DNA of 64,000 bases. Source: an uncultured Gammaproteobacteria bacterium. Lineage in GTDB: Bacteria > Pseudomonadota > Gammaproteobacteria > CAMYKB01. The stretch spans positions 12,358 through 76,357 of the forward strand of contig CAMYKB010000003.1 in NCBI GenBank assembly GCA_947258875.1, in the 5' to 3' direction. Positions 26,901 through 41,984 of the stretch are shown here, piece after piece (positions within the stretch are counted from its first letter, which is position 1; each line of letters begins with the position of its first letter). The notes beneath the pieces are model-generated. The model did no database searches. It worked only from the letters and a program-made list of their open reading frames with translations, and had not been told where the DNA came from. Both the position numbers and the translations under genes were made by a program.

Positions 26901-27117
26901 TCGCCGTGGTGAGTGGGTAGGTGACTTGATCCTCCACCACGCGCGGCGCTTGACCGGGATAGGTGGTCTTGATGATAACCTGTACATCGGACAGGTCCGG
27001 GATCGCATCCAGCGGTGTGTTCTTGACCGAGTAAATACCCCAGCCGGTGAGCAATACCGTGAGCAGGATCACCAGGAAGCGATTGTTGAGTGACCAATCA
27101 ATAATGCGTGCAATCAT
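23989..27117 (-). CDS. cusA: Heavy-metal efflux RND transporter CusA (HME-RND)
   Basis: 1042 aa with 12-TM RND topology. N-terminus MIARIIDWSLNNRFLVILLTVLL and conserved HME-RND motifs. Operon with an MFP and an OMF. Confidence 0.9.
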   Translation of the reverse strand: MIARIIDWSLNNRFLVILLTVLLTGWGIYSVKNTPLDAIPDLSDVQVIIKTTYPGQAPRVVEDQVTYPLTTAMLSVPGAVNVRGYSFFNDSYVYVIFKDGTDPYWARSRVLEYLSQVATRLPAEARPALGPDATGVGWVYEYALVDRKGTQDLSQLRSLQDWFLKYELQTVAGVSEVATVGGMVKQYQVVLNPDRLRAYGLPLAKIRMAIKMANQEVGGSVIEMAEAEYMVRATGYINELDDLRRIPLGVNAQGTPILLKDVADIRLGPQMRRGIAELDGEGEVVGGIIIMRYGENALKTIEGVKQKLEELQNGLPDGVEIVTTYDRSSLIKRAVSTLQGKLVEEFIVVALVCVVFLFHLRSAFVAIVSLPIGILIAFVVMYNQGINANIMSLGGIAIAIGAMVDAAIVMIENVHKHIEREPLTDENRWRIVREATLEVGPPLFFSLLIITLSFLPVFTLEAQEGRLFAPLAFTKTYAMAAAAGLSITLVPVLMGYFIRGHITPEHKNPINRILIAVYRPFINIILRIPKTVLLASIIIMAVGLWPVTQLGSEFMPDLDEGDLMYMPTTFPGVSIGKAQELLQQTDKIIRSHPEVERVFGKIGRAETATDPAPLTMIETTIIFKPRDQWRPGITPEKIRQELNEMVRYPGLTNAWVMPIKTRIDMLATGIKTPVGIKVAGPDLGVIQEIGQDLEKVVSQVPGTASAFSERVAGGRYIVADIDRIAASRHGLNISDVHDVVRTAVGGMNVAMSVEGLERYPINVRYPRDIRDSVTKLRNLPVVTPGGARIPLGEVADIRVEDGPAMIKSENARPNGWTFVDIKDRDVGSYVKEARQVVADNVELPAGYSINWSGQYEYMVRAKERLTLVVPVTILIIMLLLYLNFRNLTEVLIIMGTLPMALVGGFWLLYLLDYNISVAVGVGFIALAGVAVEIGVIMLVYLNQAYNRMTHHGERAHRITLDELREAITEGALLRVRPIMMTVSAIIAGLLPIMLGSGTGSEVMRRIAAPMVGGMISATLLTLVVIPAVYLVIKQSKLRSEPS

Positions 27118-27126
27118 GACGGCCCC

Positions 27127-28704
27127 TTATTTCGCTTGTTTTTGAATGGACGAAATCACATAGCCCTGATCGGTCTGTTCCAGTTCGAACATGACCGCAT
27201 CTTGCGCCGCCAAACCCTCAAGACTCACGCCCGGTTTCACATTGAAATCCATGGTCATGGAGGGCCAGCCGATGTCGGGGATTGGCTCATGAGACATGTT
27301 GAGTTTGTTTTCTGCAGCCATGATTGTCTTGAGTACACCGTTACCGGTGATTACTGCTGTGTCTTTTTCTGCAGCAGAGGCTGCCGCATCACTCATACGC
27401 ATCAGGCTGGCTTTCTGGCTGGCCTCTGAATCGATCAGGAACTGGCCCGAAGTCACTACTTTCTCGCCTTCACGCAAACCACTTTGCACTTCAATGAAAT
27501 CACCGCTCTCTATCCCGGCGGTAACCTCGCGTGACGCAAAACTACCATCACCGTTATCGATGATGACACGCTGCGTCTGCCCGGTGCGGATCAACGCCTC
27601 GCGCGGAATCGCCAATACATCGCGTTTGGCACCGCCATAGATCGTGATATCAGCGAACATGTTGGGCTTGAGCGCTTCGTCCGTATTGTCGAACTTGAGA
27701 CGCACCTTGAGTGTACGGGTCTTGGGGTCGAGTCGCGGATAGATATATTCAACCTGGCCTTCCCAGCTGCGGCCCGGCAGGTAACTCAGGCGCACGTCGG
27801 CAGTTTGTCCGGTTTTGACCCAGTCGGCCTGTGACTCAAACACCTCGGCCAGCAACCAGACATTGGACAGATCGGCAAGTGTCATCACTTCCATGGCCGG
27901 CTTAACATACATGCCTTCGCGAATCTTGAGGTTGGCAACGATGCCATCCTGCCTTGCATAGATCTTGAGCATCTGTTGTGCGCGGCGCGTTTTATTAAGC
28001 TGATTGATTTGACCCTTGCTTATGCCCAGTGCAAGCAGGCGGTCTTTTGAGGCGCCGATTAAGGAGCGGCTGCCTGAAGCCAGCGCCTGCAGGTATTCTT
28101 CCTGTGCATTGACGAGTGTGGGTGAATAGAGTTCGAACAGTGTGTCGCCTTGTTTGACGCGCTCGCCTTCCGATTTAACATGCAGTTTTTCGATCCAACC
28201 GTCGGTGCGCAGGTGCACATGGCTCACCAGTTCTTCGTTGAAATCGACATAGCCTACGGTATCGATGCGACGCCACAGACGTGAACGTTCGACACTGGCG
28301 GTACGTATCCCCATGTTTTGTACGACTGCGGGCGATATTTTTACGTCTGTACCACCGCCTTCATCGTAAACGGGTACCAGGTCCATACCCATGGGCGATT
28401 TGCCCGGCTCATCACGACGATAATTAGGATCCATGGGCGCGACCCAATACAGGATTTTCTTTTCCTTTGGTGCGGCATCGTCCTGTTTGACTTCGACCAG
28501 ATCCATACCACAGATCGGGCACGAACCAGGTTCTCCACGGATGATCTGCGGGTGCATGGGGCAGACATAATTCGGGTCAGCATGTTTAAGCCCGTGTTCG
28601 ACAGCGGTCTCACCTGTAGCGGACGGGGTTTCCGGCGGCTTTTCACACGCAGTCAGGACTAGTGATGCCATGATGAGGCTGAGTATTATTGTTGTTGATT
28701 TCAT
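27127..28704 (-). CDS. cusB: Efflux RND periplasmic adaptor CusB with N-terminal metal-binding module and C-terminal CusF-like domain
   Basis: Lipobox LTACEK. N-terminal CPMHP...CPICGM heavy-metal-binding motif. MFP core. C-terminal ~70 aa resemble CusF-like Cu(I)/Ag(I)-binding folds (MTMDFNV...). Confidence 0.85.
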   Translation of the reverse strand: MKSTTIILSLIMASLVLTACEKPPETPSATGETAVEHGLKHADPNYVCPMHPQIIRGEPGSCPICGMDLVEVKQDDAAPKEKKILYWVAPMDPNYRRDEPGKSPMGMDLVPVYDEGGGTDVKISPAVVQNMGIRTASVERSRLWRRIDTVGYVDFNEELVSHVHLRTDGWIEKLHVKSEGERVKQGDTLFELYSPTLVNAQEEYLQALASGSRSLIGASKDRLLALGISKGQINQLNKTRRAQQMLKIYARQDGIVANLKIREGMYVKPAMEVMTLADLSNVWLLAEVFESQADWVKTGQTADVRLSYLPGRSWEGQVEYIYPRLDPKTRTLKVRLKFDNTDEALKPNMFADITIYGGAKRDVLAIPREALIRTGQTQRVIIDNGDGSFASREVTAGIESGDFIEVQSGLREGEKVVTSGQFLIDSEASQKASLMRMSDAAASAAEKDTAVITGNGVLKTIMAAENKLNMSHEPIPDIGWPSMTMDFNVKPGVSLEGLAAQDAVMFELEQTDQGYVISSIQKQAK

Positions 28705-29966
28705 GATTGATCTCCTGCGAGATACAGCAGTCCGGCCAGGGTTTTGCTGTAATCGACGCGAATACGTAAGGCATCCAATTGGGTGTTGAGTGCGGTGATT
28801 CTGGCGCGCATTAACATGGTGAAATCACCGCGGTTACTTTGGTAGGCGTGCAATGCCGCTTCGGCATTCTGTCGGGCGCGTGAAATGAGGGTTTCATCAT
28901 AACGCGCCTGGCGTTCCGCCAGCTTTTGCGAGTTAGCGTAAAGTTCGTCGAGCGCCCGTTTCAGTTCCCTGTATTGCAGCTCGCGTGTTTGTAATGCGGC
29001 ATTGGTTTCGAATTGGCTGGCTGCAAGCTTTCGGTCCTGGCGCTTGTCTTTGAATAATGGAATATCGACGAGCACCATTGCAGATAAAAAATCAGCGCGG
29101 TCGCTGCCGTCCATGTTCTCGCCATCGCGGTTGCCATAAGTCACATCCAGCATCCATTTGGGTTTGTAGGCGGCGCGTGCAACAGCGACTGATTCCTGCG
29201 AAGCCTTTACGCGTGCATCCTGTGAACGCAACATGGGATGCTTGGCCAGATTTTCGAGTAACGTCGGGTAGTCGCCCGGTTGCGCAGTTGTGGGTAGCGA
29301 AGTCGTCAATGGACGTTGTGCAGCTTCATCACCAATCCAGCGTGCCAGCTTGGCGCGCGCCCTGGCTTCCATGTTTTCGACCTGTGTTTGTCGGTCGTTT
29401 AATAGTTCCAGTTCCAGTTCAGCGCGAATTACGTCCTGTTGATTACTGCGGCCAGCAGCATATTGTGAGCGTGTGATTTTAATCAGCTGCCTGAATAGAG
29501 ATTGATTGCGGCGTACAATCTGTTTTGCCTGACCCCAATAATAGGTTTCGAGGTAGAGCTCGTGAACCTGCTGTCGAATTTTCTGTTGTTTGTCGGCGGC
29601 CTGCTCACGTTCGGCATCAGCCATATGCGAAACCTGGCTGCTGCGGTGTTCCAGTGTGCCTCCGGAGGGAAACATCTGTTGCACGCCCAGCTGGACCTGT
29701 GTCATGGGTTCCTGTTCGCGGGCAAAGGTGTCGGTAGGAAAATTCATTAACCCAAGTTTTAATTTCGGGTCCGGCAGCTGTTTGCTGGCAATGGCGCGCT
29801 CATCCAGGGCCTGTGCCTTCTCGTAATGACGTTGCACCAGAGGGTCTTGCTGCATCGCCAGTTGCAGCGCATCTTCAAGCGCCAGTTCGGTAGCGGAAGC
29901 GTTACCGCCAAATACAGCAAATAGTGTTAGCAGACCTAACACGGCAAATCGAAATTGATAGTTCAT
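28701..29966 (-). CDS. cusC: Outer membrane efflux protein CusC (TolC family)
   Basis: OMF repeats. Start at MNYQFRF (ATG 29966) with GGAG RBS. 4 bp overlap with cusB. Confidence 0.85.
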   Translation of the reverse strand: MNYQFRFAVLGLLTLFAVFGGNASATELALEDALQLAMQQDPLVQRHYEKAQALDERAIASKQLPDPKLKLGLMNFPTDTFAREQEPMTQVQLGVQQMFPSGGTLEHRSSQVSHMADAEREQAADKQQKIRQQVHELYLETYYWGQAKQIVRRNQSLFRQLIKITRSQYAAGRSNQQDVIRAELELELLNDRQTQVENMEARARAKLARWIGDEAAQRPLTTSLPTTAQPGDYPTLLENLAKHPMLRSQDARVKASQESVAVARAAYKPKWMLDVTYGNRDGENMDGSDRADFLSAMVLVDIPLFKDKRQDRKLAASQFETNAALQTRELQYRELKRALDELYANSQKLAERQARYDETLISRARQNAEAALHAYQSNRGDFTMLMRARITALNTQLDALRIRVDYSKTLAGLLYLAGDQS

Positions 29967-30080
29967 TGTACTAACTCCAACGCAGCTGCAGGTTGCGCAC
30001 TTAGCTGTGTATGATGCAGCGCATCTTCCGTAAACAAAAGAAAATAAGACCAACGCGGTTAGCGTAGGCTAACAGTGAGT

Positions 30081-30419
30081 CTAGTAGATGCGTGGAGGTC
30101 GCAGTTCGATCGGATGGTCGATATCGTGAGGTGTTGAGTAGAGGCGTACGATCTGTTGGTTGCCCGCCATTGTGCTGGGAGAATAATCAGAGATGATGAA
30201 TGTGAAGCCTGTGGATGAGTCACAATCAAGGCAGTTGCAGCATTGTGTGTGATCGGTATGTAACTTAAATACATGGTTTGCGTGATCTTTCAGCATGGAA
30301 TCGCAGTGGCAGCTGCTTGAAGTGTTGGTATTGAATGGGGGGCTGCTGATAGCATTAAACGGCGCCATGATCATCATGACGGCCAGTATTGCTACCACAG
30401 GGTTTAACAGCTTCTTCAT
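30081..30419 (-). CDS. Small secreted Cys/His-rich protein (copper-island family member 1)
   Basis: 112 aa with signal peptide. CHCD, CCNCLDCD and His clusters. C-terminal ...HPIELRPPRIY tail shared with two other ORFs in this island. Confidence 0.55.
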   Translation of the reverse strand: MKKLLNPVVAILAVMMIMAPFNAISSPPFNTNTSSSCHCDSMLKDHANHVFKLHTDHTQCCNCLDCDSSTGFTFIISDYSPSTMAGNQQIVRLYSTPHDIDHPIELRPPRIY

Positions 30420-30604
30420 GCTGTTAGAGCATAGAGAGTGAATATATGTGTGTCAATCGGGCGCCAATCGTTATTTGCATATCGTCGCTCCCGAGTTAGC
30501 GCTCATTTGATTTCGGTCAATATTTGGGAACATACGGTAAACCAGACTGTCTACTATGATTAGGTCAATACCAATCATGGGCATCTCAACAGGCTGAATA
30601 TGCC

Positions 30605-31060
30605 ATGTGTCGTCGACAGATCAATGAAGAACCAGCGTGCCTCGTGAGGTTGTTGTTGGTTCTGATGATTGGTTTTATGCCCATGCAGCTCGTTGTGGCC
30701 GGCTTGCCTGCTCATGTTGCTGGCGAGCAGGCGCTCGTAACAACACAAAAGCTATGCCGTGGCTATGATGAAACCAAGCTTGATAGTGTAAGGTATGACC
30801 ATAACCACACTGCAAATACCGCTGCCAGCAGTGATAGCCAGAACAGCGATGAAGTCTGCGCTTGTTGTTATGATCAAGCATGCAATGGGATTGTGTGTGT
30901 CAGTAGTTGCGGCGGGGCGCCTGGCGGCACAATGATTCCAGCCCATACTTCAGATCTCTTTAACTTTACAGCGCACAAGCTGAGTCCGTTTCATTTGCTT
31001 ACCAAGCGCGAACTCCATATTTCTCCTCCCCAAAGACCTCCACGTACTGTCACTCTCTAA
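30605..31060 (+). CDS. Small secreted Cys-rich protein (copper-island family member 2; true start probably downstream Met)
   Basis: Hydrophobic N-terminus. CACCYDQACNG...CVSSCGG. C-terminal ...FHLLTKRELHISPPQRPPR tail. Confidence 0.45.
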   Translation: MCRRQINEEPACLVRLLLVLMIGFMPMQLVVAGLPAHVAGEQALVTTQKLCRGYDETKLDSVRYDHNHTANTAASSDSQNSDEVCACCYDQACNGIVCVSSCGGAPGGTMIPAHTSDLFNFTAHKLSPFHLLTKRELHISPPQRPPRTVTL

Positions 31061-31242
31061 AGCGCGCTTGCCTGTAGGGCAGGCTTAGCGTCGTAACCTG
31101 TTGGCCGCAGCGATACGGAGCTATGCATATGCATGGATTCCATGTGGATAGGCACTCACCTGCAAGCAACGCCTGATGGATAGTGTCACTGGAGTCGAGA
31201 ATAGTAACGGCAAATCAATGGACAGTAATTTGGAGAAATATT

Positions 31243-31752
31243 ATGAAGTCATTATACAAACATGGTTTACAAAAAAATCTTGCTGGTGGCGCCTACTGGT
31301 ACATAATTGTCGGTGGGCTTGTATTAGCATTGATCGCGTCATTCATGATTTGGATGCCTGTGCGCAATGCCGACGCTGATGCCATTGAGATCACCGTTTA
31401 CAAGAGCCCGACATGCGGGTGTTGTAACAAATGGATCAGCCATCTGAGTGATAACGGATTTAAGGTCAAAGCTGTGAACATGCCCAATATGGATCAGATC
31501 AGGGCGCGGTCTGGAATCACGTCCGAATTATCTTCGTGCCATACAGCGCTGGTAGATGACTACATTGTAGAGGGGCATGTGCCGGCTGATGTGGTCAAGC
31601 GTTTACTGCAGGAGCGTCCCGAAGTCAGGGGTATTTCGGTGCCGGGAATGGTAATGGGTTCGCCGGGCATGGAGGGTAATCGTCGCGATGCTTATAATAT
31701 CCTGACCTTTGATGCTGAGGGCAATACTGCTGTTTATGCCAGTCGACGGTGA
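31243..31752 (+). CDS. DUF411 family metal-binding protein (CopG-like of copper resistance clusters)
   Basis: GGAGA RBS before the ATG at 31243. N-terminal TM anchor. CGCC motif (KSPTCGCCNKW) typical of DUF411. Confidence 0.75.
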   Translation: MKSLYKHGLQKNLAGGAYWYIIVGGLVLALIASFMIWMPVRNADADAIEITVYKSPTCGCCNKWISHLSDNGFKVKAVNMPNMDQIRARSGITSELSSCHTALVDDYIVEGHVPADVVKRLLQERPEVRGISVPGMVMGSPGMEGNRRDAYNILTFDAEGNTAVYASRR

Positions 31753-31861
31753 CTCATTGGTCTATATGGTTAGAACAGGATTAAAAGGATGATGTGAGAC
31801 CTGCTGTTAAATAGAGTTGCGCTATCGGTGTTAGATATCGCGATTGCCGGAGGGTGACGAT

Positions 31862-32212
31862 ATGAACGAAACAATCATCGAAATACTCAGTTATCCGCGT
31901 GCATTAATGCATCAATACATTGAGCTCGAAGACTGCGCTCATGCCGGACACTATGCAGCAAAGGAGAAGGAATGTCAGCGATGTGATTACGAGTTCGAGT
32001 GTCAATGGCTATTCGGTAATGATGAATGTGTCGCGCTAGAACAGAAATCCAGTGAGGCAGTCGCTTGTTCGTTTGAATCCGCAATAGCCTATGTCGAAGG
32101 GATGAGTATACTGAATGGACATGATACGCATCGCTGTACCTGTGATAACTGTACATGGACCAGGGATGCATTGCTGTTTATCGGTGAATTAAAATGCCGC
32201 CAGATGCGGTGA
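31862..32212 (+). CDS. Hypothetical Cys-rich cytoplasmic protein
   Basis: GGAGGG RBS before MNETI. ~13 Cys in 116 aa, including CQRCDYEFEC and CTCDNCTW. Confidence 0.45.
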   Translation: MNETIIEILSYPRALMHQYIELEDCAHAGHYAAKEKECQRCDYEFECQWLFGNDECVALEQKSSEAVACSFESAIAYVEGMSILNGHDTHRCTCDNCTWTRDALLFIGELKCRQMR

Positions 32213-32318
32213 GTAGAGGAAAACGAACGTGCGTAATATTGCATGCATATAACGAATTAAACGAAAGTATCGCGATACCTGATTATATTTAATAGGTTTC
32301 ACGATCGGGAGGTTTCGA

Positions 32319-32930
32319 ATGTCAAATAATATACGCGTGAAGATTGTTCTGGCAATGGTGGTCGGTATGGGTTTGCCTGTCGTGGCATCAAGTTGTGAGA
32401 TGGGCTCAGATTCGGGTGAATCTACTAATGAGCGCGATACTCATGAAAGCATGGATCATGGTGACGAGGGTATGCAGGGTGATAAGCATGCTATGGATAT
32501 GGCGGGTCACCAGCATGGTGAGTGGGTAGCACCGCCAGCCGATTACAGCGAAAAGGTAAATGCTGACTGGAACGATGAGGCTGCGGCCCTGCGCGGGAAA
32601 ACGCTATACCAGCAAAACTGCGCAAGCTGCCATGGTGCAGATGGAAAAGGTACGGGGCCAGTGGCAAAATCTCTGGAGCATCCTCCGGCTGATTTGACAA
32701 ATCATTTTCACAAGAAGGCCGGTGATGGCGACGCTTATCTTTTCTGGAGAGTGAGTGAGGGTGGTGTCGTGGCGCCTTTTAAAGCAATGAAATCAGGTAT
32801 GCCACCATTCAAATCCAGCTTGAGTGAGCCGCAACGCTGGGATGTTCTGACTTATGTCCATAAGGCGTTTCATAAAGGTTTTTCTGATGAAGATAAACGT
32901 GACGACAGCCATAAAGATCATACTCATTGA
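32319..32930 (+). CDS. Monohaem c-type cytochrome with Met/His-rich N-terminal region, lipoprotein
   Basis: Lipobox VVASSC. Single CASCH. Met/His-rich stretch MDHGDEGMQGDKHAMDMAGHQHGEW reminiscent of Cu-binding MXXM/HXXM motifs. Confidence 0.7.
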   Translation: MSNNIRVKIVLAMVVGMGLPVVASSCEMGSDSGESTNERDTHESMDHGDEGMQGDKHAMDMAGHQHGEWVAPPADYSEKVNADWNDEAAALRGKTLYQQNCASCHGADGKGTGPVAKSLEHPPADLTNHFHKKAGDGDAYLFWRVSEGGVVAPFKAMKSGMPPFKSSLSEPQRWDVLTYVHKAFHKGFSDEDKRDDSHKDHTH

Positions 32931-33161
32931 TGGTGCAAGGCAGGTAATGGGTATGATCAACATCATGTGCGCTGAACGCAATGTGTCTGTGGCAAAGCGA
33001 CCTGAAGTCAGTTTACTCAACGGCTCGCAATCGAGGGCGCTCTCTTAAGAATCAGACGCTGCCCGAATGACAGGGTGGCGCAACGAGTTTCAGTGTTATG
33101 CGTGTTGTTACCAATGAGGTTGCTTGGTGCGGCATGTGTGATCAAACCAGGAGGTGATGTT

Positions 33162-33485
33162 ATGAGTTTCCAAATGGTGGTAGCGATGTTTCCGGAATTA
33201 GCCCTGGAGCAGGTTGAGCTGGATTTGATGGACCTGGGTGTTCCTGGGATGACGATATCTAGAGTGCATGGTTTGGGAGAATACCGAAATTACTACACAA
33301 AGGATTGCATGGCTGATTGCATCCGCATGGAGATATTTACAGAGACTGAGAAGACAAGAGAAATAGTAAACACTATTGCGAAAACTGTGCATCAAGGCTT
33401 GGCTAGCGACGGTATTATTGCGATTCTTCCTGTAGAAGAATTCATACACATCAAAAACTTTATTGGGATGCCAGATGATGGGTAA
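33162..33485 (+). CDS. P-II (GlnB-like) family small protein often associated with HME-RND operons
   Basis: GGAGGTGA RBS. MSFQMVVAMFPELALEQVELDLMDLGVPGMTISRVHGLGEY resembles the GlnB-like ferredoxin-like fold (DUF3240-type). Confidence 0.55.
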   Translation: MSFQMVVAMFPELALEQVELDLMDLGVPGMTISRVHGLGEYRNYYTKDCMADCIRMEIFTETEKTREIVNTIAKTVHQGLASDGIIAILPVEEFIHIKNFIGMPDDG

Positions 33486-34041
33486 TAATGTAAAGCGTAT
33501 TTATCTGGGAGCTGTTTCAAGATCTTGTGATAGCGCGTGATCTTGCGCCTTTTGTTTCAGTGCCACAGTAAAAATGGAGGCGCCAACGACCATTGGAAAA
33601 ATGACACACCTCCTGCGTTGATCACCGGTATCAATGGCGCCCGCTTCATATGGTTGCATGTCCCATTGCTGCGAACATTCAATATTTCGCTGTATGTAAT
33701 ATATGTGACCTCAACAATGATGAAGAAGGATGTGCAGGCATACCAATAGCGATTTTCCATAAAGGTTTCAGTGAGGGCGTGAACGTAACCACAAATACTT
33801 GTGGTTGTTGGTGTCAGGCAATGCCTGATTTTGTGGTGGCAGCCAGGCACGGCCGCATAGCAATTTTATCAATACAATGATTGCGGCAATGGTGATCACC
33901 CAAATTAACAGGCCAAAAATCTATGTCCGAAACCGAAACATAGTTGGTGACCATCATGCATGGTTTTATACCTCTATAAAATGCTGCAAGGGTGCCGTCC
34001 TGTTTTTATTCCGCAGAACGGCACCACAGGATCGCAAATAC

Positions 34042-34563
34042 TTAATGTCCCATCATGGAATGATCCATCTGGAAGGTATCGCCCGTACCTTCCTTGTTCC
34101 ATGGCGGCATGGCTGGGTAATGCCCCGGACCTTTGGAAGCACCTTCGGATTTGCCGCCGCACTTATCCCAGGTGGCGTTATCCAGCATGATCAAACCACG
34201 GCTACCATTGGCGCACAGCGTTGCCAGCTCGTGCTGCGCTGACGTGGGTTCCATGGCATAACGACCATCAAAACCCGCCTCGCGAGCACGGCCGCTCGGC
34301 GGAATGGTGTTGAGTTTGTCTAGCGTTTTTACTTCACCGGTGTCTCTGTATTGAGGGCTTGCCGCGGGTGCATGTTGAGAATGGTCCATAGGCATCGCGT
34401 GTTTGCTATGGTCCATCTCCGGTTGCATCGTCTGTTGCATTTGATCAGGGTGCTGCATCTGCCCTGCATGGCCACTGTGATCGGGTTCAGCCGCGATCAA
34501 TGCGCCACTCGTAGCCAGGGTCAATCCAGTCATAAAAATTAATATTTGCATATGAAGTTTCAT
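34042..34563 (-). CDS. Met/His-rich periplasmic protein (putative copper-binding; resembles the CopB N-terminal Met-rich module)
   Basis: Signal peptide. Repeats MDHSKHAMPMDHSQHA and HSGHAGQMQHPDQMQQTMQPEMDH. Immediately downstream of copB. Confidence 0.6.
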   Translation of the reverse strand: MKLHMQILIFMTGLTLATSGALIAAEPDHSGHAGQMQHPDQMQQTMQPEMDHSKHAMPMDHSQHAPAASPQYRDTGEVKTLDKLNTIPPSGRAREAGFDGRYAMEPTSAQHELATLCANGSRGLIMLDNATWDKCGGKSEGASKGPGHYPAMPPWNKEGTGDTFQMDHSMMGH

Positions 34564-34577
34564 GTTATTGCCCCCAC

Positions 34578-35780
34578 TTATCGTGTGATGTAGTTGTGTT
34601 CTGTATCGAGGATTGATGTACGCTCGCCAATGGTGTCATTGAATGTCATATCGAAATTGAACGATAAACCCACCATGACCGCGGTCTCCTTGTCATAGCC
34701 GGTGATTGCTGCAATGCCATCATCAAGATCGGTGTAGCTGAGTTGGCCGATCAGGTCGACACCTGATCCCAGTCGATACGCAATGCTGGGGATGATGCTG
34801 AACTGACTGGCGTTGCTGTCATCGTAGTCCTTATAGGCTAGTGTCAACCCCGCCTGCCAGCGTGTCAGTAGCTTGGGTCGGCGCGTGTAGCGCAGTGAGC
34901 TTACGGCAGACCATGAGGCGGTGCGTCGCAAACCATTGGCATCGAGCAAAGTGATGTCGTCGAGGCCTTCGCTGTAGATGATTTGCAGGCCCGTTGACCA
35001 GTTGGCTAATGGGTTGTTGTTGAGATTGAACTCAGCACCTGCGATGACTGAATTACTGCTGGAATCGTTGACGCTATCGTCAACGTCCTGGTAATCGACC
35101 AGTAGGCCGAGGGTGCGCAGGCGTTTGAGATACACCAGTTCTTCAGGTATGACATAGACGAGACCGATACCGGCCGAGTTCATGTTGAATTCATCGCGTT
35201 TTTCACCATTGGGCTCGGTTTCTGCGCGTGTACCAGCCCATACTGACGCCGTTGTATAGGGTGTGATATGCCAGCCGAGCGACATGATGTCGCCGAACAT
35301 CTGGTATTGATCGTTTTCCGCGAACGATGACAGATTGAGTGCATGGGTGTAGGTCATCAGGTCGTCGTCGCGCAGGGTTGGAAATTCGATCAGTGTGTTG
35401 GGCAGGCGGGTGCGCCCGAGCAGCACATCGTAATTCTTGTTCCAGTAAAACGCGTTGAACTGATGGAAGAACACATCATCATCAAGATCGCTGTCCTGGT
35501 CCGGCTTGGTGAAACCGACCATGGCGCCTGCGACCCCGGTTTCATAGATGCGCTTGTCGAAACGCAGTAATAACCCCGAATCAGAAATATCGATGGCATT
35601 GTGATCTTCGTCTTCGTTACCGGCGAAGCCGTCCAGCTGACTCGCTGAGGGGGTGGCGATCACACGGCCACCGACGGTGACACGCGGCATGACTTTGCGG
35701 TCTACTTCAAGCGCTTGTGCCGACTGCAAACCGAGTAATGCGGCGAGCGCTGAAAATAATAAAGTGTATTGTGTTTTCAT
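34578..35780 (-). CDS. copB: Copper resistance protein B (CopB/PcoB outer-membrane protein)
   Basis: 400 aa with signal peptide. Beta-barrel-like sequence ending in aromatic residues. Positioned after copA as in pco/cop operons. Lacks the usual N-terminal Met-rich region. Confidence 0.75.
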   Translation of the reverse strand: MKTQYTLLFSALAALLGLQSAQALEVDRKVMPRVTVGGRVIATPSASQLDGFAGNEDEDHNAIDISDSGLLLRFDKRIYETGVAGAMVGFTKPDQDSDLDDDVFFHQFNAFYWNKNYDVLLGRTRLPNTLIEFPTLRDDDLMTYTHALNLSSFAENDQYQMFGDIMSLGWHITPYTTASVWAGTRAETEPNGEKRDEFNMNSAGIGLVYVIPEELVYLKRLRTLGLLVDYQDVDDSVNDSSSNSVIAGAEFNLNNNPLANWSTGLQIIYSEGLDDITLLDANGLRRTASWSAVSSLRYTRRPKLLTRWQAGLTLAYKDYDDSNASQFSIIPSIAYRLGSGVDLIGQLSYTDLDDGIAAITGYDKETAVMVGLSFNFDMTFNDTIGERTSILDTEHNYITR

Positions 35781-35803
35781 GATTATATTCCTTCTCGCAA
35801 CAG

Positions 35804-37147
35804 TTACTGGTCCACAGACGTCGAGGGTATGTAGCTGGGCTGGAAGTCCTCGTACTCGAGCACCGTCAGCATGCCTCCGGGGTAAATGCCGTTATTGGTG
35901 GCGTGGGTCGTCTTGTGGTCGTGGAAAGTCCAGTAGCCGGGGTTGTCGCCGTACACCATAATGTCGTAGGTGCCGCCTGGTTCCACATGAATAGTATTGA
36001 TCTGGCGGGGTTCAGCCAGGTCATTACCGTCTTGTGCCACCCACCAGAAGTCATGGCCATGCAGATGCATGTGATGGGTCAGGCCACTGGCGTTGATCAT
36101 GCGGATGCGTATCCATTCGCCCTGTCGGATACTGATGCGCTTGGTTGCGGGATAGGCCTTACCGTTGATGCCGAAGAAGTTTTGCTTCATGTGCATCCCG
36201 TTAGAACGGCTTTGCAGATATGGCGCCTTGTAGTCGCCGCTATCAACAGCCTGTTTGAACTCAGCGTAGTCCTTGAAGAAGCCGTGTGTCTTATAGTCCA
36301 GCTTGCCTTGTGACATCAACAGGTTGACCTCTTTCATGCCGCGCAAGAGTTCATTGATTTCTTCACGTGAAAAATCGATGTCCCAGGCCTCGAGCATGAG
36401 GGTATAGTCCCGTGTGTAAGGGAAGCGTTTTTTCAGAGGTTCGTGCTTGCGGTGCACGATGAATGCGCCGTGCATCGCATGGGTGGCATGTAAAGGCGTC
36501 CCCCAGTGGCAGTGATACCAGCGGGTACCTGATGGTTTAGCTTGAAAGCGATACACAAAGGTCTGGCCGGGATGCACCGGATCCTGGGTGATCATAGGTA
36601 CGCCATCCATGGTGTATGGCAGCACGATGCCATGCCAGTGGATGGTGTGCATCTCCTCTGTATGGTTAGTGAAATTGACCTTGACCCAATCACCTTCGGT
36701 GACATGGAATTCAGGTCCCGGCACCTGGCCATTGAAGGCGAAGAAGTGTGTCTTGATGCCAGGCAGGATTTCGTGCTCGGCCAAACGGATGTCGATATCG
36801 AACACCTTGTAATCAACCTCATGGTCGGCGGGTGAGCCGGGGGGTTCGGTCAACAGGCCGGGCTGCATGGCATGACCTTCCACGAACATCATGGAGCTGT
36901 AACCGTTACCGGCCTGTCCCATCTGAGCATGCATGCTGTGATCCATGCCGCCTTGAGCCATGTGTGCAGAGTGATCTGTTTTATCTGTCTGGGCGGCCAG
37001 TTGGCTGCTCGCTGCCAGCGCGGCCGAGCCGGTGGCGGCTACGGCGCCGCGCAAGAAGTTACGGCGCGAAGTATCGGCTGATGGTGGTGTAATATCCGCA
37101 GCCTGCAGTATGCGCTGCTTGTCGTGCTCGAGGTTTTTAGATTTCAT
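35804..37147 (-). CDS. copA: Multicopper oxidase CopA/PcoA (Tat-secreted)
   Basis: Tat motif RRNFLRGAVAATGSAALA. Copper ligand motifs HWHG, HCHW...H.H.MHG and HMHLHGH. Met/His-rich loop. Confidence 0.9.
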   Translation of the reverse strand: MKSKNLEHDKQRILQAADITPPSADTSRRNFLRGAVAATGSAALAASSQLAAQTDKTDHSAHMAQGGMDHSMHAQMGQAGNGYSSMMFVEGHAMQPGLLTEPPGSPADHEVDYKVFDIDIRLAEHEILPGIKTHFFAFNGQVPGPEFHVTEGDWVKVNFTNHTEEMHTIHWHGIVLPYTMDGVPMITQDPVHPGQTFVYRFQAKPSGTRWYHCHWGTPLHATHAMHGAFIVHRKHEPLKKRFPYTRDYTLMLEAWDIDFSREEINELLRGMKEVNLLMSQGKLDYKTHGFFKDYAEFKQAVDSGDYKAPYLQSRSNGMHMKQNFFGINGKAYPATKRISIRQGEWIRIRMINASGLTHHMHLHGHDFWWVAQDGNDLAEPRQINTIHVEPGGTYDIMVYGDNPGYWTFHDHKTTHATNNGIYPGGMLTVLEYEDFQPSYIPSTSVDQ

Positions 37148-37243
37148 CCTCTATCTCCTGATCAATTACCTGAGACCCAATAACCCGCACTAAAGGAATC
37201 CGTGCAAGTAAAGCCTTAGTAGCCGTATGGCTACGGGTAGTGA

Positions 37244-37600
37244 TTAGAGATAGCGGGGTGGGCGGTATTCCAGGGAGGGCAGAAATTCGTGTGGGGCGAA
37301 GCCGGGCTTGCTGATCAAGACAGATATGATTTCTGAATCGCCAGTGGAATTGGCTGTCAGCATGGTCTGCGTGAAACTGCTATCAGCGCAGTTATTGCAT
37401 TGGCCGTTATGATCACAGCCCTTGTTTTGATCCTGTTGCTTGTCCATTTTGCAGTGTGTGGCCTGCTCAGACATTTGTTGGCAGTGTTTGCAGTCGTCAG
37501 CATCGGTGAGATGTGCAGGTGCAGCCATAGCCTGCAAGGGCGCAAAAATCAGGCTGCAGACCAAAAGGAATATCCACCATATATTGCGGCGAGTTTTCAT
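37244..37600 (-). CDS. Small secreted Cys/His-rich protein (copper-island family member 3)
   Basis: Signal peptide. CKHCQQ, HCKMD, CDHNGQCNNC. C-terminal ...PHEFLPSLEYRPPRYL tail matching the 30081 and 30605 ORFs. Confidence 0.55.
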   Translation of the reverse strand: MKTRRNIWWIFLLVCSLIFAPLQAMAAPAHLTDADDCKHCQQMSEQATHCKMDKQQDQNKGCDHNGQCNNCADSSFTQTMLTANSTGDSEIISVLISKPGFAPHEFLPSLEYRPPRYL

Positions 37601-37843
37601 ATAGAACGAAGCTTAACTCCCACTATTTCCATTTACAAGCAAGTGATAATAGTAAGCTGATATAAATCAAGACCAGTAATCAAGCCTGATAGTTCCGATT
37701 GTTGTGTAAACTGAGGTATGGGAACGACGGATCAGCAGCTCTATTCGTCAGGCTTAAGGGAGGTCACCTCATTAGTAAGATGCAGCAAGTCGCGTGATGG
37801 GGGAATGGTTTTCATCGCGCTGCCCTGGTGAGGCTGGGCTGCC

Positions 37844-40800
37844 TCAGGCGGACTGGCTTGCGTTCAGCGTTTCCTGCTTTTGCTTGCCAAACACCTCATC
37901 GAATGGCGTAGCGCGGCCTAATAAAAAACCTTGAACGTAATCTATGCCAATCTCTTTGAGGAGGCTGAGCGTCTCTTCATTCTCGACACATTCCGCGATG
38001 GTCTTAATGCCCATGATCTCACCCACTTCGTGAATAGCGGCCACCATGGCGCGATCTACGGAGTCATTAGCAATGCCGCGAACGAAGTGCCCGTCAATTT
38101 TCAGAAAATCGACAGGTAGGTTTTTTAGATAGTTGAAAGATGACAGCCCGCTGCCGAAATCATCCAGCGAGAAACTGCAACCGGTATCACGCAGTGAGGT
38201 GATGATATTGGAGGCCTGTGCGATATTGCTCACAGCAGCGGTTTCAGTGATTTCAAAGCAAACGCATTCTGGTGGCACATGGAACTCAATCAACGTCTGG
38301 CAGACATAGGACACCAGATCACGGTCATTCAGCGATGTTCCGGACAGGTTGATCGTCATTTTGCTGGCTGGCGGGGTGTCCGTATTGCTCATATAGCGAC
38401 GTAATGCTTCATAAATCACCCAACGGTCGATCTTGCTCATCAGGTTATAGCGTTCCGCAGCCGGTATGAACGCGCCGGGTGAAACCAGCTGGCCGTCTTC
38501 ACCTGTCAGCCGCAACAGGATCTCATAGTATGTGGCGGGGCTGCCATCTGCGGGCAGGCTAATGATAGGTTCGCAATACAAATCAAATTTTCCCTGCGTC
38601 ATAGCATCTGATAATGCCGCCGCACGGAATAACTCATTGTGCCGTTTACCGGATTCATCGTCTTCAAACTGGTAGATGTGCAACCGGTTGCGGCCTTGTT
38701 CTTTTGCGGTATAACAAGCGACATCGGCGCGGGTAAGGAGTTGCACTGCACTGTCTGCGTTATCGGAAATCGGTGTAATGCCTATGCTTACGCCTATGCT
38801 GAAACTGTGGTCTTTCCACAAAAACCGGTAGTCGTTCAATGCGCTAATGAGTGTTTCCGCGATATGTTCGGCGTGATGCAATGAACAGCTATGTAATAAC
38901 AAGCAGAATTCATCGCCGCCTATCCGGGCTAGTGTGTCAGCCGCACGTATCTTATGTAACAGCAGGTTGCTGACCTGCTTGAGTAGTTTGTCCCCTGCGA
39001 TATGCCCGACTGTATCATTGATGACCTTGAACTGGTCCAGGTCCAGGTAGCACAGCACGTGTTGTTGATCCGAGTTTTTAACGTCCTTGAGGGCCTGCTT
39101 TATCAGACGTTCGCATTCACTGCGATTGACGAGGCCTGTGAGTGAATCGTGGGTCGCCTGATAGGCCATTTGTCTGGCAAGATGTCGTGATTCGCTGATA
39201 TCTATGAACGTAAAAACATAGCCGCGGTAGGTGCTGTCTTCACCAATGATGGCTGATGCCGAACTCTGGATGGAGAATTCACGGCCATTGCGACTGGTCA
39301 TGATGATGTCATCATTAACGCCGATCGAATCCTGCTGATGAATATAAGCGTCAATGGGAGACGTGACTGGTTCGCGTCCCAGTTCAGTCATCACTTTGAA
39401 TACCTCGTTGATAGGTGTCCCAATCGCTTCGCTTTCAGCCCATTCCGTTAGCTCCCCGCTAACCGGGTTCATATAGGTAATGATACCTTCCGGGTCGGTA
39501 GTAATTACGCCTTCATTGATTGAGTCGAGCGTAGTCTGAATACGATTTTTTTCGGTAGCCAGGGTGGCTTGTGCCTGCTGACGTTCACTGACCTCGGTTT
39601 GTAGCTGGGTGTTGGCTTCATGTATCTCAACAAACTGATTGCATAATGATTCTGTCATGGTGTGCAGGGTGTTGGTGAGGGAGCGAATCTCGGAAATTCT
39701 GCTTTTTGGCCATTCGATGAAACGTCCGCTAACCAGGCGGTTGGAGAGTGCCGATGTTTCGTTTACCAGACGTACCAGCGTATCGGTTGCGCGTCGGCTG
39801 AGGATGGCTGATACCAGGGCAGAGATAAGGGAAACAAGAAACGCAAAACCGAGGTACTTAACATATACATTCTGTAACTCTGTGATGTTGCCAGATAATG
39901 GTTTTTCAATGACTGCATGGGCGTTTAGCAAGGCGCCGTCAAGATCAGGTTCGATGATGGCAACAGAATTCCTCCAACGTGCCAGCGCGGGCATTGCTTC
40001 ATTCGGCAGGAAGTTCGGTATCTTGTCTGCGAAGGAGAGCGTGGCCTGAGCTCTCTTGTGCGCATAGTCATCTCCAGGGGCCAGATCTGGGCTGGTAGCG
40101 GCGATGACGCGGCCATTTTCACTTACTATGGCGGCCTTTGCGCCAATGGATTCTGTGAATTCGGCGAAGACCTCGAGTAGGCCCTGGCTTGACAGATTAT
40201 AGCTCACGCTTGCCAATTTCCGCTGATTCTCCAGCAAGTCGATGCTGTAAGTGATGCGGTCACTATTACCACTACCACTCGTCCCTCGTGGCTGGCGGAA
40301 ACTCCTTTGATAAAGAAGTTTATTGTTGGCATCAGACAAGACGATTTTGCTGGGTGCGAGTTTAGCGAACTGATCGTGCAGGTTGCTTTGATTCAATCTG
40401 CTTGCCAGGCGTCTGGGATTGTTGATTAATTCAGAAAGCTTATCGCCCTTGTCAGTGACGCTAACTGTAAGTTGGTTTGATATGGTGTGCGATGTGGCTG
40501 CTAAATTCTGTTTAATCTCATCAAGGATCTTTGTGTGGTCCTGTCTTGCCTGGTAGGCGAAAATACTGATTGCCGGGATTACAGCGAAAGAGATCAGCAG
40601 GCTTTGCAGTGATCCCGTGATGGAAACAAAATTTCTATTATCGTTCTGATTGCGCCAGAACACGGAAGGGGTAATGGCCGCCAACAGTATGGCCGCCACC
40701 GCATTGGTGATGCCGTTAACCGGCTGCTTGAACAGGATAGTCAGTGCTTGAGGGTTATCGATATGCAATGTCCCGGAATAGAAAAACCAGGTCATCGGCA

Positions 40801-41131
40801 TGCCCAGCAACAGCCAAAAGGCGATATCTGCGGCTACGATGTCTGTTTGTGTGCGGCGGATTAATGTACCGACGAACAGCGCCTCGGCAGTGAAGGTGAT
40901 CAGCGCGTAGGGATGCCCCCAGTGCAATAAGGTGTAGCTACTGGCGGCAATGGCAACGACCACCCCCCAGAAAGTGCCAAGATGGCGGGTCACGGTCAGT
41001 GTGGCTATGCTGCCGAACAGGTAATTGACGCCCAGGAAAAGAGGCAGGCTATAGTAATTGCCAGCGAATCCCGCTATTGAAAACAGTAGGACGATAGACA
41101 GGGTCTTGATCATCGCTACAAAATTATTCAA
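37844..41131 (-). CDS. Membrane-anchored sensory protein with PAS, GGDEF and EAL domains (c-di-GMP turnover)
   Basis: 1095 aa. N-terminal multi-TM region. PAS (LDSINEGVITTDPEGIITYMNP). GGDEF (RIGGDEFCLLL). EAL (EALRRY...CFEITETAAV). Confidence 0.9.
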   Translation of the reverse strand: MNNFVAMIKTLSIVLLFSIAGFAGNYYSLPLFLGVNYLFGSIATLTVTRHLGTFWGVVVAIAASSYTLLHWGHPYALITFTAEALFVGTLIRRTQTDIVAADIAFWLLLGMPMTWFFYSGTLHIDNPQALTILFKQPVNGITNAVAAILLAAITPSVFWRNQNDNRNFVSITGSLQSLLISFAVIPAISIFAYQARQDHTKILDEIKQNLAATSHTISNQLTVSVTDKGDKLSELINNPRRLASRLNQSNLHDQFAKLAPSKIVLSDANNKLLYQRSFRQPRGTSGSGNSDRITYSIDLLENQRKLASVSYNLSSQGLLEVFAEFTESIGAKAAIVSENGRVIAATSPDLAPGDDYAHKRAQATLSFADKIPNFLPNEAMPALARWRNSVAIIEPDLDGALLNAHAVIEKPLSGNITELQNVYVKYLGFAFLVSLISALVSAILSRRATDTLVRLVNETSALSNRLVSGRFIEWPKSRISEIRSLTNTLHTMTESLCNQFVEIHEANTQLQTEVSERQQAQATLATEKNRIQTTLDSINEGVITTDPEGIITYMNPVSGELTEWAESEAIGTPINEVFKVMTELGREPVTSPIDAYIHQQDSIGVNDDIIMTSRNGREFSIQSSASAIIGEDSTYRGYVFTFIDISESRHLARQMAYQATHDSLTGLVNRSECERLIKQALKDVKNSDQQHVLCYLDLDQFKVINDTVGHIAGDKLLKQVSNLLLHKIRAADTLARIGGDEFCLLLHSCSLHHAEHIAETLISALNDYRFLWKDHSFSIGVSIGITPISDNADSAVQLLTRADVACYTAKEQGRNRLHIYQFEDDESGKRHNELFRAAALSDAMTQGKFDLYCEPIISLPADGSPATYYEILLRLTGEDGQLVSPGAFIPAAERYNLMSKIDRWVIYEALRRYMSNTDTPPASKMTINLSGTSLNDRDLVSYVCQTLIEFHVPPECVCFEITETAAVSNIAQASNIITSLRDTGCSFSLDDFGSGLSSFNYLKNLPVDFLKIDGHFVRGIANDSVDRAMVAAIHEVGEIMGIKTIAECVENEETLSLLKEIGIDYVQGFLLGRATPFDEVFGKQKQETLNASQSA

Positions 41132-41621
41132 CAGTCATGCCCGTTGGTCGTTATCATCATACAGCCCAGCCCCCTGCCCAAGATGCCCAAAGATATAGTA
41201 AATACGCAGAATTTAACGCTTTTTCTCGTACATAGCTATTTTAAGTTAACCAATCTGCTGCTCAGTGCCGCAGCTGATACTGCGACGGAGGGCGGTGGAT
41301 AGGGGCAAAACAGGCTATGGGTTAATTGTTGGAGTTGGGCTGTTTCAGTGCTGTCAGCGGGTTATGCATAAATAAATCTTCCGCGATCTGTGGCTTAAAG
41401 GGGACGAATCCAGCGCGCTTCCCAGGATGGTAGGCTATGTGCAGGTGCTGCGCTGGCGGGTAATAGTTGCTTATGGAGAAACCATTATTATTGTAAGTTT
41501 GTTCAGTTTACATTCAGGTCTTTTCTTGTAACATGCGAGTCTAAATTATGGGGGTTCCCGCTAGGGGGCTGTTTGAAATATTTTTTATATTCATATAGAT
41601 ATGGTAATTAGGAGAGGTGAA

Positions 41622-41933
41622 ATGATCAGGTTAGCACGCATTATTGTTGTATTAGGCTTGCTGATTAGCGGTAGCGCGATGGCTGCCGGGGATGCAGCAG
41701 CAGGTAAAACTAAGGCGGCATCCTGTGCCGGTTGTCACGGCGCTAATGGTATTAGCAATGTCCCGATGTACCCTAATCTGGCAGGCCAAAAGGAAGCCTA
41801 TATTGTCACCACATTGAAGGGTTTCAGATCCGGTGAACGCAAGAACGCCACCATGAAGGCGATGGCGGCAGGCCTGTCCGATGCGGATATCGATAACCTC
41901 GCTGCTTACTTCTCGGGCTTGAGTTGCAATTAA
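41622..41933 (+). CDS. Monohaem class I cytochrome c (c552/c4-like)
   Basis: GGAGAGG RBS. Signal peptide. CAGCH, then ...PNLAGQ...Y.V..L..F...R. Confidence 0.8.
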
Positions 41934-41951
41934 CGAAATTATATTTGCACA

Positions 41952-41984
41952 ATAAAAAGGCCCGCTTTAGCGGGCCTTTTTATT
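41952..41984. terminator. Bidirectional rho-independent terminator
   Basis: aaaaaGGCCCGCtttaGCGGGCCtttttatt between convergent genes. Confidence 0.8.

Follow-up and report, generated by a model that had tools for sequence, protein, structure and literature searches.

Three small Cys/His-rich open reading frames (ORFs), here called A, B and C, are located in the copper island of a 64,000-nucleotide stretch of DNA from an uncultured Gammaproteobacteria bacterium (contig CAMYKB010000003.1; the whole stretch is referred to as the window). Judged by their sequences, they appear to belong, as divergent and largely unannotated representatives, to the known CutF/CruR/CopL/CzcI class, in which a nascent peptide senses a metal. 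Our preferred reading, which we consider probable, is that they are leader ORFs that act in cis and fall within the CutF/CruR/CopL/CzcI (DUF2946) superfamily; they would respond to copper through stalling of the ribosome at a carboxy-terminal RPPR motif and unmasking of the next gene's Shine-Dalgarno (SD) sequence. Pfam and NCBIfam scans of the neighbouring genes place each of the three directly upstream of copper genes on the same strand: A before cusC (an OEP gene), B before a DUF411 gene and C before a multicopper oxidase (MCO) gene, with intergenic regions of 114, 182 and 96 nucleotides (nt), respectively. Because no terminator-like site separates A, B or C from its downstream gene, they are taken to be the first cistrons of operons, not flanking genes. 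The first-pass annotation had placed them on either side of cusCBA and copAB; the copper context holds, but A heads the cusCBA operon, and the copA and copB labels are unsupported.

Architecture and relatives of the small ORFs

Translation confirmed three small Cys/His-rich ORFs where they had first been annotated, with a description as signal-peptide-bearing. Each amino-terminus consists of a basic segment followed by a hydrophobic core (12-residue hydropathy 2.7–3.0) and resembles a signal peptide; that of C reads MKTRRN-IWWIFLLVCSLIFAPL-QAMA/AP. The Cys/His counts are 6/7 for A, 9/7 for B and 7/5 for C. The elements of the three ORFs are the following:

30081..30419, minus strand: ORF A, 112 residues, putative CutF-like leader ORF at the head of the cusCBA operon (from its translation, the homology of A and C, and HMMER relatives upstream of cusB/cusA or OEP genes)
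30345..30419, minus strand: predicted export signal of A, MKKLLNP-VVAILAVMMIMAPF-NAIS, with an approximate end (read from the translation; 12-residue hydropathy maximum 3.0)
30222..30242, minus strand: Cys cluster of A, C60-C61-x-C63-xx-C66 (CCNCLDC), a putative metal site, preceded in the chain by C37-H38-C39 and His residues
30090..30101, minus strand: RPPR codons of A (CGA CCU CCA CGC), followed by Ile-Tyr-stop; putative ribosome-arrest motif, with RPP invariant among the relatives recovered by HMMER
30605..31060, plus strand: ORF B, 151 residues, putative CutF-like leader ORF that runs divergently from A and precedes the DUF411 gene
30857..30910, plus strand: Cys cluster of B, C85-x-C87-C88 ... 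C93 ... C98-xxx-C102
31034..31045, plus strand: RPPR codons of B (AGA CCU CCA CGU), followed by Thr-Val-Thr-Leu-stop
37244..37600, minus strand: ORF C, 118 residues, putative CutF-like leader ORF at the head of the multicopper-oxidase operon
37523..37600, minus strand: predicted export signal of C, MKTRRNIWWIFLLVCSLIFAPLQAMA, with an AxA cleavage-type end (translation and hydropathy)
37451..37492, minus strand: further C37-x-H39-C40 and H49-C50 of C
37388..37417, minus strand: Cys cluster of C, C62-x-H64-xxx-C68-xx-C71
37253..37264, minus strand: RPPR codons of C (CGC CCA CCC CGC), followed by Tyr-Leu-stop

The sequences of the carboxy-terminal tails had been quoted correctly, but in the order A, C, B, and the tail of B extends further, to ...RPPRTVTL. 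RPPR is followed by two residues and the stop codon in A and C and by four residues in B; counted from the double proline (PP), three residues remain in A and C and five in B. A second PP is present in B four residues upstream (SPPQRPPR). Across the six frames of the window, only four of the 263 ORFs of at least 60 residues end in [RK]PP plus one to five terminal residues. Three of these four are A, B and C, which span 7.5 kb, and the tail pattern in them is above chance. The fourth (51459..51692, minus strand) lacks a hydrophobic amino-terminus, contains only one Cys and was discarded as a member.

The last Cys of the cluster is located 42 residues before the first Pro of RPPR in A, 43 residues in B and 43 residues in C, where the distance runs from C71 to P114. 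In a set of 48 proteins of 103–153 residues, this distance is 32–43 residues (median 38, interquartile range 37–40), and one to five residues follow the PP. The amino-terminal part varies in length by tens of residues, while the spacer between Cys and PP does not, and a spacer running through the ribosome tunnel and translocon therefore fits better than a folded domain. The motif that precedes the spacer is a CxxC in A (C63-LD-C66) and C (C68-NN-C71), whereas B contains a CxxxC (C98-VSS-C102), the spacing also seen in CutF, together with C85-A-C87-C88. When the residues between this motif and the Arg of the arrest motif are counted, there are 40 in A, 41 in B and 41 in C; the family median is about 36 from the last Cys.

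Homology between A and C extends from end to end (BLASTP E 3e-8), and B is similar to C at the amino-terminus only (BLASTP E 3e-4). When compared by hhalign with a profile of the 44 relatives from outside the window, C and B align over their full length (98.9% and 95.6%, respectively) and A over its tail only (96.3%). The three can be grouped into one copper-linked family, as had been proposed. A word-indexed search of 5.8 billion proteins with all three ORFs returned nothing except B itself, the exact sequence of which exists in an NCBI record; the exact sequences of A and C are absent from a collection of 15 billion proteins. When a profile of A and C was run exhaustively with HMMER against 1.84 billion representatives, it yielded 15 weak matches (E 8.5e-10 to 9e-4), 14 of which were retrieved and aligned, without the tail motif being imposed. 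All 14 contain a signal peptide, a C..C..C cluster and [RK]PP one to five residues from the stop, and 11 of them are 117–133 residues long and cover the profile nearly end to end. On their contigs, genes for a CusB with HMBD and CusF domains and for CusA are found downstream of P0002 and P0003, and an OEP gene downstream of P0005 and P0007. The genes downstream of P0013 (an MCO, a 390-residue protein, a 140-residue protein and a cytochrome c) have the order of the C operon.

Relatives were also located by synteny. GTDB genomes searched with the MCO of the window gave 64 loci, mostly from gammaproteobacterial metagenome-assembled genomes, the best match being 81% identical (Granulosicoccaceae). 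An upstream ORF in the same orientation, having an export signal, Cys/His residues and an [RK]PP tail, is present in about 43 of the 64 by a first filter. Eight more have an upstream ORF with an xPP[R/K] or PPP tail, bringing the total of loci with such an ORF directly upstream to about 51, and of the remaining 13 loci two have less than 30 nt of upstream sequence. The variant tails, found at L025, L026, L044, L045, L051–L053 and L056, are TPPPTFYL and TPPPTLFA, with the PPP of CutF, and EPPR, QPPR, QPPK and HPPK. Arg or Lys thus does not precede PP in every case, and a basic residue after PP is common.

Exhaustive HMMER and synteny together gave about 50 very divergent relatives in equivalent positions, from several proteobacterial classes. 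Identity among them is about 20% (mean column identity 19–21%), and in an alignment of 47 sequences the nearly invariant columns are limited to two Cys, into which C68 and C71 of ORF C fall, and the PP. What is kept across the relatives is the export signal, the Cys cluster and [R/K]PP one to five residues from the stop, at a set distance from the Cys. Homologues with conserved Cys and tail thus do occur beyond this genome, the fixed place of [RK]PP in them agrees with the earlier view of the tail as a functional element, and co-occurrence with cus/cop-type genes is seen in their position upstream of cusB-cusA, OEP and MCO genes. Other searches added little: tblastn of C, B and the ORF of L060 against plasmids gave nothing useful, a search for related loci with an alignment of the C subgroup matched 26 stretches of which none was confirmed, and a profile search of the PDB gave nothing below E 0.4, that is, no solved relative.

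The earlier guess that the ORFs are DUF2946-like is correct at the level of the superfamily, but not for the ORFs themselves. None of A, B and C matches Pfam DUF2946 (PF11162; gathering score 23.7 bits), even at E ≤ 10, and no other Pfam family matches them. ORF B scores 19.7 bits against NCBIfam CzcI (NF045614; E 1e-3; cut-off 100 bits) and 15.2 bits against CopL_fam (NF033807; E 0.025; profile positions 1–127 of 129; cut-off 40 bits), while A and C match neither. Sub-threshold matches among the 47 relatives recur for DUF2946 (11 of 47), CopL_fam (16 of 47, best E 3.1e-7) and CzcI (3 of 47), and for no other family. The ORF of L067 passes the DUF2946 gathering score, with 24.2 bits over profile positions 4–111 of 117. 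As A, B and C fail, their relatives match weakly and the L067 ORF passes, the link to DUF2946 is transitive only.

Predicted pairing of the ORF ends with downstream Shine-Dalgarno sequences

In minimum free energy (MFE) folds, the end of each small ORF pairs with the SD of the next gene, in A, in B and in C. In A and B, the SD would pair with the CCUCCA Pro-Pro codons themselves, while in C the pairing segment extends from the final base of the Arg116 codon through the Tyr and Leu codons to the first base of the stop. The footprint zone is defined as the approximately 30 nt covered by a ribosome whose P site contains the second Pro codon, and P(zone) is the computed probability that the SD pairs with it. 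The pairing segments are:

30089..30097, minus strand: anti-SD of A, CUCCACGCA, inside the Pro-Pro-Arg codons (MFE fold; duplex -15.1 kcal/mol; P(zone) 0.73)
29975..29984, minus strand: SD region of cusC, UGCGUUGGAG, 8 nt before the ATG at 29966, paired with the anti-SD of A
31038..31051, plus strand: anti-SD segments of B, CUCCA and UACUGUC (MFE fold; duplex -11.6 kcal/mol, rank 2 of 122; P(zone) 0.33)
31220..31235, plus strand: SD region of the DUF411 gene, GGACAGUA...UGGAG, with the ATG at 31243, paired with the anti-SD of B
37246..37253, minus strand: anti-SD of C, CUAUCUCU (MFE fold; duplex -15.9 kcal/mol, rank 1 of 89; P(zone) 0.82; fold z = -2.2)
37151..37158, minus strand: SD of the MCO gene, GGAGAUAG, with the ATG at 37147, paired with the anti-SD of C

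The pairing was analysed over 48 loci. For a tail window of 33 nt, consisting of the last 30 nt of the ORF including the stop codon plus the 3 nt that follow, binding to the SD window is stronger than for windows from the interior of the same ORF (-12.9 versus -9.1 kcal/mol, Wilcoxon p = 2.4e-7), a comparison that controls for base composition. In 29% of the loci, the tail window is the best of about 100 windows. Cognate pairs of tail and SD are also more stable than non-cognate ones (-15.2 versus -10.7 kcal/mol, z = -11.5, 0 of 20000 permutations), and the paired bases are concentrated at positions -10 to +9 around the stop codon. The helix sequences differ between loci, being CUCCUAAGCA/UGCUUGGGAG in L016 and UUCCUGAAAC/GUUUCAGGAG in L018, so the tail and SD sides co-vary; when L008 is compared with C of the window, compensatory changes are seen (ACAUCUC/GAGAUGU versus CUAUCUC/GAGAUAG). 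In the free RNA, the mean unpaired probability of the SD is 0.19 by partition function, and the SD pairs mainly with the footprint zone in 30 of the 48 loci, the values for our three ORFs being those listed above.

Small near-perfect hairpins are located inside the long-range helix between tail and SD, with similar positions in L005, L006, L008 and L009. In the window, GTAGCC-ATAC-GGCTAC (37219..37234, minus strand, after C), GTTAGC-CTAC-GCTAAC (30058..30073, minus strand, after A) and GCTTGCC-TGTAG-GGCAGGC (31066..31084, plus strand, after B) all start 6–10 nt past the stop codon.

Proposed regulatory mechanism and alternative explanations

CutF, from the cutFOG operon of Rhodobacter capsulatus, is a 118-residue Sec-exported product of an ORF upstream of the gene for the twin-arginine translocation (Tat) multicopper oxidase CutO; it contains the motif C69xxHC73 and the tail PEPEGPPPRL118, with a Cys-to-Pro distance of 41 (PMC8456105). 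Its nascent, co-translationally exported chain senses periplasmic copper, and the ribosome stalls on the Pro motif and melts the stem-loop that masks the cutO SD (PMC9973294). Stalling is induced by copper, and the signal peptide, Cys motif, Pro motif and SD-masking stem-loop are all required (PMC9973294; bioRxiv 10.1101/2025.02.05.636593), the PPP motif and EF-P being involved (bioRxiv 10.1101/2025.02.05.636593). CutF acts in cis only and is undetectable in cells (PMC9973294). A catalogue of CutF-like proteins places them upstream of OEP/RND, MCO, TonB and further copper genes, OEP being the commonest neighbour, with CopL and CzcI in the same network; the rule set of Ozturk et al. 2023 for such proteins includes a length below 150 residues (PMC9973294). 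At 112 and 118 residues, A and C are within this limit, and B, at 151, misses it by two residues.

For A, B and C we propose a mechanism of five steps, of which the first three rest on the sequence and the in-silico RNA evidence and the last two are derived from the published CutF work. Each ORF would be the first cistron of a copper-defence transcript (A with cusCBA, C with the MCO operon and B with the DUF411 gene), A and C possibly on leaderless mRNAs, and the nascent chain would be exported co-translationally via Sec. In the free mRNA, base pairing would join the next gene's SD to the last codons and stop of the leader ORF. Once the ribosome arrives at the RPPR codons, the Cys/His cluster about 42–43 residues back would be just outside the conduit formed by ribosome and translocon, and periplasmic copper bound to the cluster would block the pulling or folding that otherwise resolves the slow Pro-Pro step, causing the ribosome to dwell on RPPR. 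Parked three to five codons before the stop, it would cover the anti-SD and free the SD, and the efflux pump, oxidase or CopG-like protein could be made. Without copper, the peptide would be completed, released and probably degraded.

This logic fits the data; the conserved geometry and the pairing between tail and SD are hallmarks of the cis-acting sensors CutF and CruR (PMC9973294; PMC9426467; bioRxiv 10.1101/2025.02.05.636593). Like cutF, the ORFs of the window are small and, in the case of C, also 118 residues long; they have a predicted export signal, and C is, like cutF, directly upstream of a Tat multicopper oxidase gene. Their Cys motif precedes the carboxy-terminal Pro motif by about the same distance (41–43 residues), an Arg and one or two residues follow (...GPPPRL in CutF, ...RPPRYL and ...RPPRIY here), and the downstream SD is masked by mRNA pairing, in our case in silico. 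Differences from CutF are a tail with RPP(R) in place of PPP, a Cys motif of the form CxxC or, in B, CxxxC, with no His at the position of CutF H72, and an anti-SD located in the last codons and stop instead of in a separate intergenic stem-loop as between cutF and cutO. In the window, an RND pump operon and a DUF411 gene are headed by such a device as well, and the small ORFs lack an SD of their own and may be leaderless, a feature not reported for cutF.

CruR (Bp2923 of Bordetella pertussis, the DUF2946 prototype) contains a CxxC and a RAPP three residues from its end, with a conserved and required spacing of 45 residues; when copper is present it represses a TonB-dependent importer via Rho, and it needs neither a signal peptide nor EF-P (PMC9426467). 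Our ORFs share with it the position as first gene of a copper operon, a predicted export signal, the CxxC and a conserved spacing between the motifs. However, RPP with 40–41 intervening residues replaces RAPP with 45 (± 1–2), so that the ruler is present at another length, RPPR contains no Ala, and A, B and C are below the DUF2946 gathering score. CopL (Xanthomonas/Stenotrophomonas copLAB) and CzcI (Cupriavidus czcICBA) are likewise encoded by small Cys/His-rich ORFs that immediately precede a copper oxidase gene (copL-copA) or an RND operon (czcI-czcCBA), which are the positions of C and A, respectively. Theirs are the sole NCBIfam families matched repeatedly by B and the relatives, although B scores far below the cut-offs and A and C do not match. 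The copL gene acts only in cis (cited in PMC9973294), and CzcI and CzcI2 are reported to be without a carboxy-terminal proline motif (PMC9973294). SecM and the RAPP-type arrest peptides (ApdA/ApdP and similar), a comparison drawn before (PMC9426467; bioRxiv 10.1101/2025.02.05.636593), are also exported leaders with a carboxy-terminal Arg/Pro arrest that opens a helix masking the SD of the next gene. They differ in monitoring the secretion machinery instead of a metal, in their motifs (RAGP or RAPP) and in having no Cys cluster.

Several points weigh against reading A, B and C as leader ORFs of this kind. All of the evidence is computational and based on sequence; RPPR, as a putative arrest motif, differs from the PPP of CutF and the RAPP of CruR. 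The three ORFs are all under the curated cut-offs of DUF2946, CopL_fam and CzcI, and the first filter of the MCO loci, which gave the figure of about 43 of 64, imposed Arg or Lys before PP. The fold z-scores of the three intergenic regions in the window are modest (-2.2, -1.5 and -1.4). When the footprint zone is forced open, the accessibility of the SD rises just from 0.19 to 0.31 on average, alternative pairings being available at equilibrium. Through their composition, Pro codons of the CCUCC type can pair with any SD, so that the signal is inflated in the case of A and B, and the downstream start codons of the MCO loci were picked partly by SD score. The weakest case is B, with its long intergenic region (182 nt), its low P(zone) (0.33) and no significant pairwise similarity to A. 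Among 80 related DUF411 loci fetched from metagenomes, a CutF-like upstream ORF is present in just 2 of the 69 with enough upstream sequence, and the better of these two, in L086, shows no pairwise similarity to B; the pairing of B with DUF411 is therefore rare and no conserved module.

The first-pass annotation had suggested that the three products are periplasmic copper chaperones or metallothionein-like buffers, RPPR possibly being a tag recognised by a partner such as the RND pump or a TonB receptor; in this reading the mature peptides would be stable and the tag would serve for docking. The signal-peptide-like amino-termini, the Cys/His clusters and the location in a copper island suit this as well, the nearest NCBIfam family is named 'CopL family metal-binding regulatory protein', and a released peptide could have a secondary role. 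None of the three matches CusF, CopC, PCuAC or a similar chaperone family in Pfam or NCBIfam, however, and the mature region, 19–21% identical among the relatives, is nearly unconserved, while the length between Cys and PP is kept, as for a spacer rather than a fold. The same tail precedes genes for unrelated proteins (OEP, membrane-fusion protein, MCO and DUF411), which leaves no common partner, and a docking tag does not predict the locus-specific complementarity of the tail codons to the next SD. CutF, for its part, is undetectable in vivo and without activity in trans (PMC9973294). With geometry and pairing conserved in place of the mature sequence, a function as chaperone or tag is not supported, and we consider it unlikely.

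Two other explanations keep the ORFs as regulatory or incidental elements. In an arrangement of the CruR type, RPP would arrest the ribosome by default and shield the transcript from Rho until copper relieved the arrest and Rho terminated transcription, so that copper would repress the downstream genes. Genes for RND efflux, an MCO and a CopG-like protein are expected to be induced by copper, whereas the target of CruR is an uptake receptor. Conserved masking of the SD by the end of the ORF is a device of the CutF type and not a Rho device, and the predicted export signal, with which CruR dispenses, is universal here. Membership of the same superfamily and the R-x-P-P tail of CruR, three residues before the stop as in A and C (PMC9426467), favour such an arrangement, as do the resemblance of Arg before PP to the RAPP/RAGP arrest motifs (PMC9426467; bioRxiv 10.1101/2025.02.05.636593) and intergenic regions of about 100–180 nt that could hold rut sites. 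Given efflux and oxidase functions as targets and SD masking as the conserved device, it is the less likely logic and, in our estimation, rather improbable. Plain translational coupling or chance, in which the ORFs would be spurious or would open the SD with no metal sensing, is highly improbable. A ribosome terminating at the stop codon would indeed open the helix transiently, and the exact sequences of A and C being absent from the 15-billion-protein collection and the relatives being missed by the word-indexed search are what spurious ORFs would give; but the architecture is kept in about 50 loci from several proteobacterial classes, with an invariant PP and near-invariant Cys columns, the chance expectation for the tail is well below three clustered cases, and simple coupling needs no export signal, Cys cluster or fixed distance from Cys to PP.

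With A, B and C read as leader ORFs of the CutF type, three hypothetical 'metal-binding proteins' would be reclassified as regulatory elements, and the combination of export signal, Cys site, fixed ruler, Pro arrest motif and masked SD would be present, unlabelled by Pfam and NCBIfam, in about 50 uncultured proteobacterial lineages. With the complementarity of tail and SD and the ruler of 32–43 residues as predictions at the sequence level, the transmembrane-stalling model could be examined in another, strongly divergent subfamily and at three different target operons together. For annotation, a rule- or profile-based caller for such ORFs upstream of cus, czc and MCO genes appears warranted.

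Promoter-like signals and the surrounding copper island

No SD was found at positions -18 to -4 in any of 47 small ORFs, A and C included, compared with 38 of the 47 downstream genes, a comparison biased by the choice of downstream starts partly by SD score. A TANNNT hexamer ending 4–10 nt before the ATG is present in 23 of the 47 small ORFs, compared with 3.1 ± 1.8 at random positions (maximum 8 in 200 draws), and 14 of the 47 have, at that position, a -35/-10 pair in which 8 or more of 12 bases match, compared with 0.52 (maximum 3 in 300 draws). These two counts are independent of any choice of start by upstream sequence, and the random positions were taken from the same loci. In the window, the signals are:

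30428..30456, minus strand: promoter-like TTGACA-17-TATGCT, ending 8 nt before the ATG of A (consensus match only)
37610..37638, minus strand: promoter-like TTGTAA-17-TAAGCT, ending 9 nt before the ATG of C (7 of 12 matches, weak)

The arrangement before C recurs in L004 and L009. The distribution of these signals suggests that A, C and many members of the family are leaderless or near-leaderless. No report tying DUF2946, CutF or CruR to leaderless mRNAs was found in the literature searched; transcription of cruR starts 45 bp upstream of its start codon (PMC9426467). More tentatively, sensors with the RPP(R) tail may form a branch that has no SD of its own, is translated from leaderless mRNA under a near-consensus promoter and carries its anti-SD in the last codons and stop or in CCUCCA Pro-Pro codons, so that the three paralogous sensors of the window might gate an RND pump, an MCO and a CopG-like protein purely by translation; we regard this as possible but doubtful. 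The leaderless signature, were it real, would bring a new element into the stalling model. A -10-like hexamer is also seen 5–9 nt before the ATG in L008, L012, L016, L017, L028, L047, L060, L061, L068 and others.

The genes downstream of the three ORFs are:

23989..29966, minus strand: cusC (28701..29966, OEP), cusB (27127..28704) and cusA (23989..27117, RND), the operon after A (Pfam, NCBIfam)
31243..31752, plus strand: DUF411 (CopG-like) gene, the likely target of B (Pfam DUF411, 1.2e-25)
34042..37147, minus strand: operon after C, with a Tat MCO (35804..37147), a 400-residue protein (34578..35780) and a 173-residue His/Met-rich protein (34042..34563)

Translation of cusC is likely to begin with the ATG at 29966; a GGAG precedes this codon by 8 nt, and the product then has a signal peptide. 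In the encoded CusB (27127..28704, minus strand), two amino-terminal HMBD domains and a carboxy-terminal CusF domain are fused to the membrane-fusion protein, an architecture also found after an A-like ORF in the metagenome loci L001–L003. The MCO of the window is a 447-residue protein with a Tat signal that scores 139 bits against the CopA model, far below the cut-off of 479, and the 400-residue protein has no CopB, Pfam or NCBIfam match; the label 'copAB' was dropped for this pair. The short Tat MCO, the protein of about 400 residues without a family and a His/Met-rich protein of 140–173 residues form a conserved module (34042..37147, minus strand, in the window; 4466..6884 in L008), and in L008 this gene order again follows a C-like ORF.

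Within the island, a 122-residue Cys/His-rich ORF without a signal peptide or family match (31844..32212), a cytochrome c with a His/Met-rich amino-terminal extension (32319..32930) and a P-II-like protein (33075..33485) are encoded on the plus strand. A 793-residue multihaem cytochrome with MtrC/MtrF-like domains (18224..20605, minus strand) is located upstream of the island, and other neighbours are a GGDEF-EAL protein (37844..41131), Slp lipoproteins, an M48 peptidase and the housekeeping genes rpe, trpE, crp, coq7 and rpiA. No regulator of the CusRS, CopRS or CueR type was found among the ORFs scanned in 16795..64000, which are part of those present there. An Rfam scan revealed no known RNA family in the island, the only matches in the window being a 6S RNA (60847..61026, minus strand, 100 bits) and a tRNA (54638..54708, plus strand). 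The G+C content is 0.46–0.48 in the region 30000..34000 and 0.50–0.55 in most of the flanking sequence, a dip that would agree with part of the island having been acquired horizontally.

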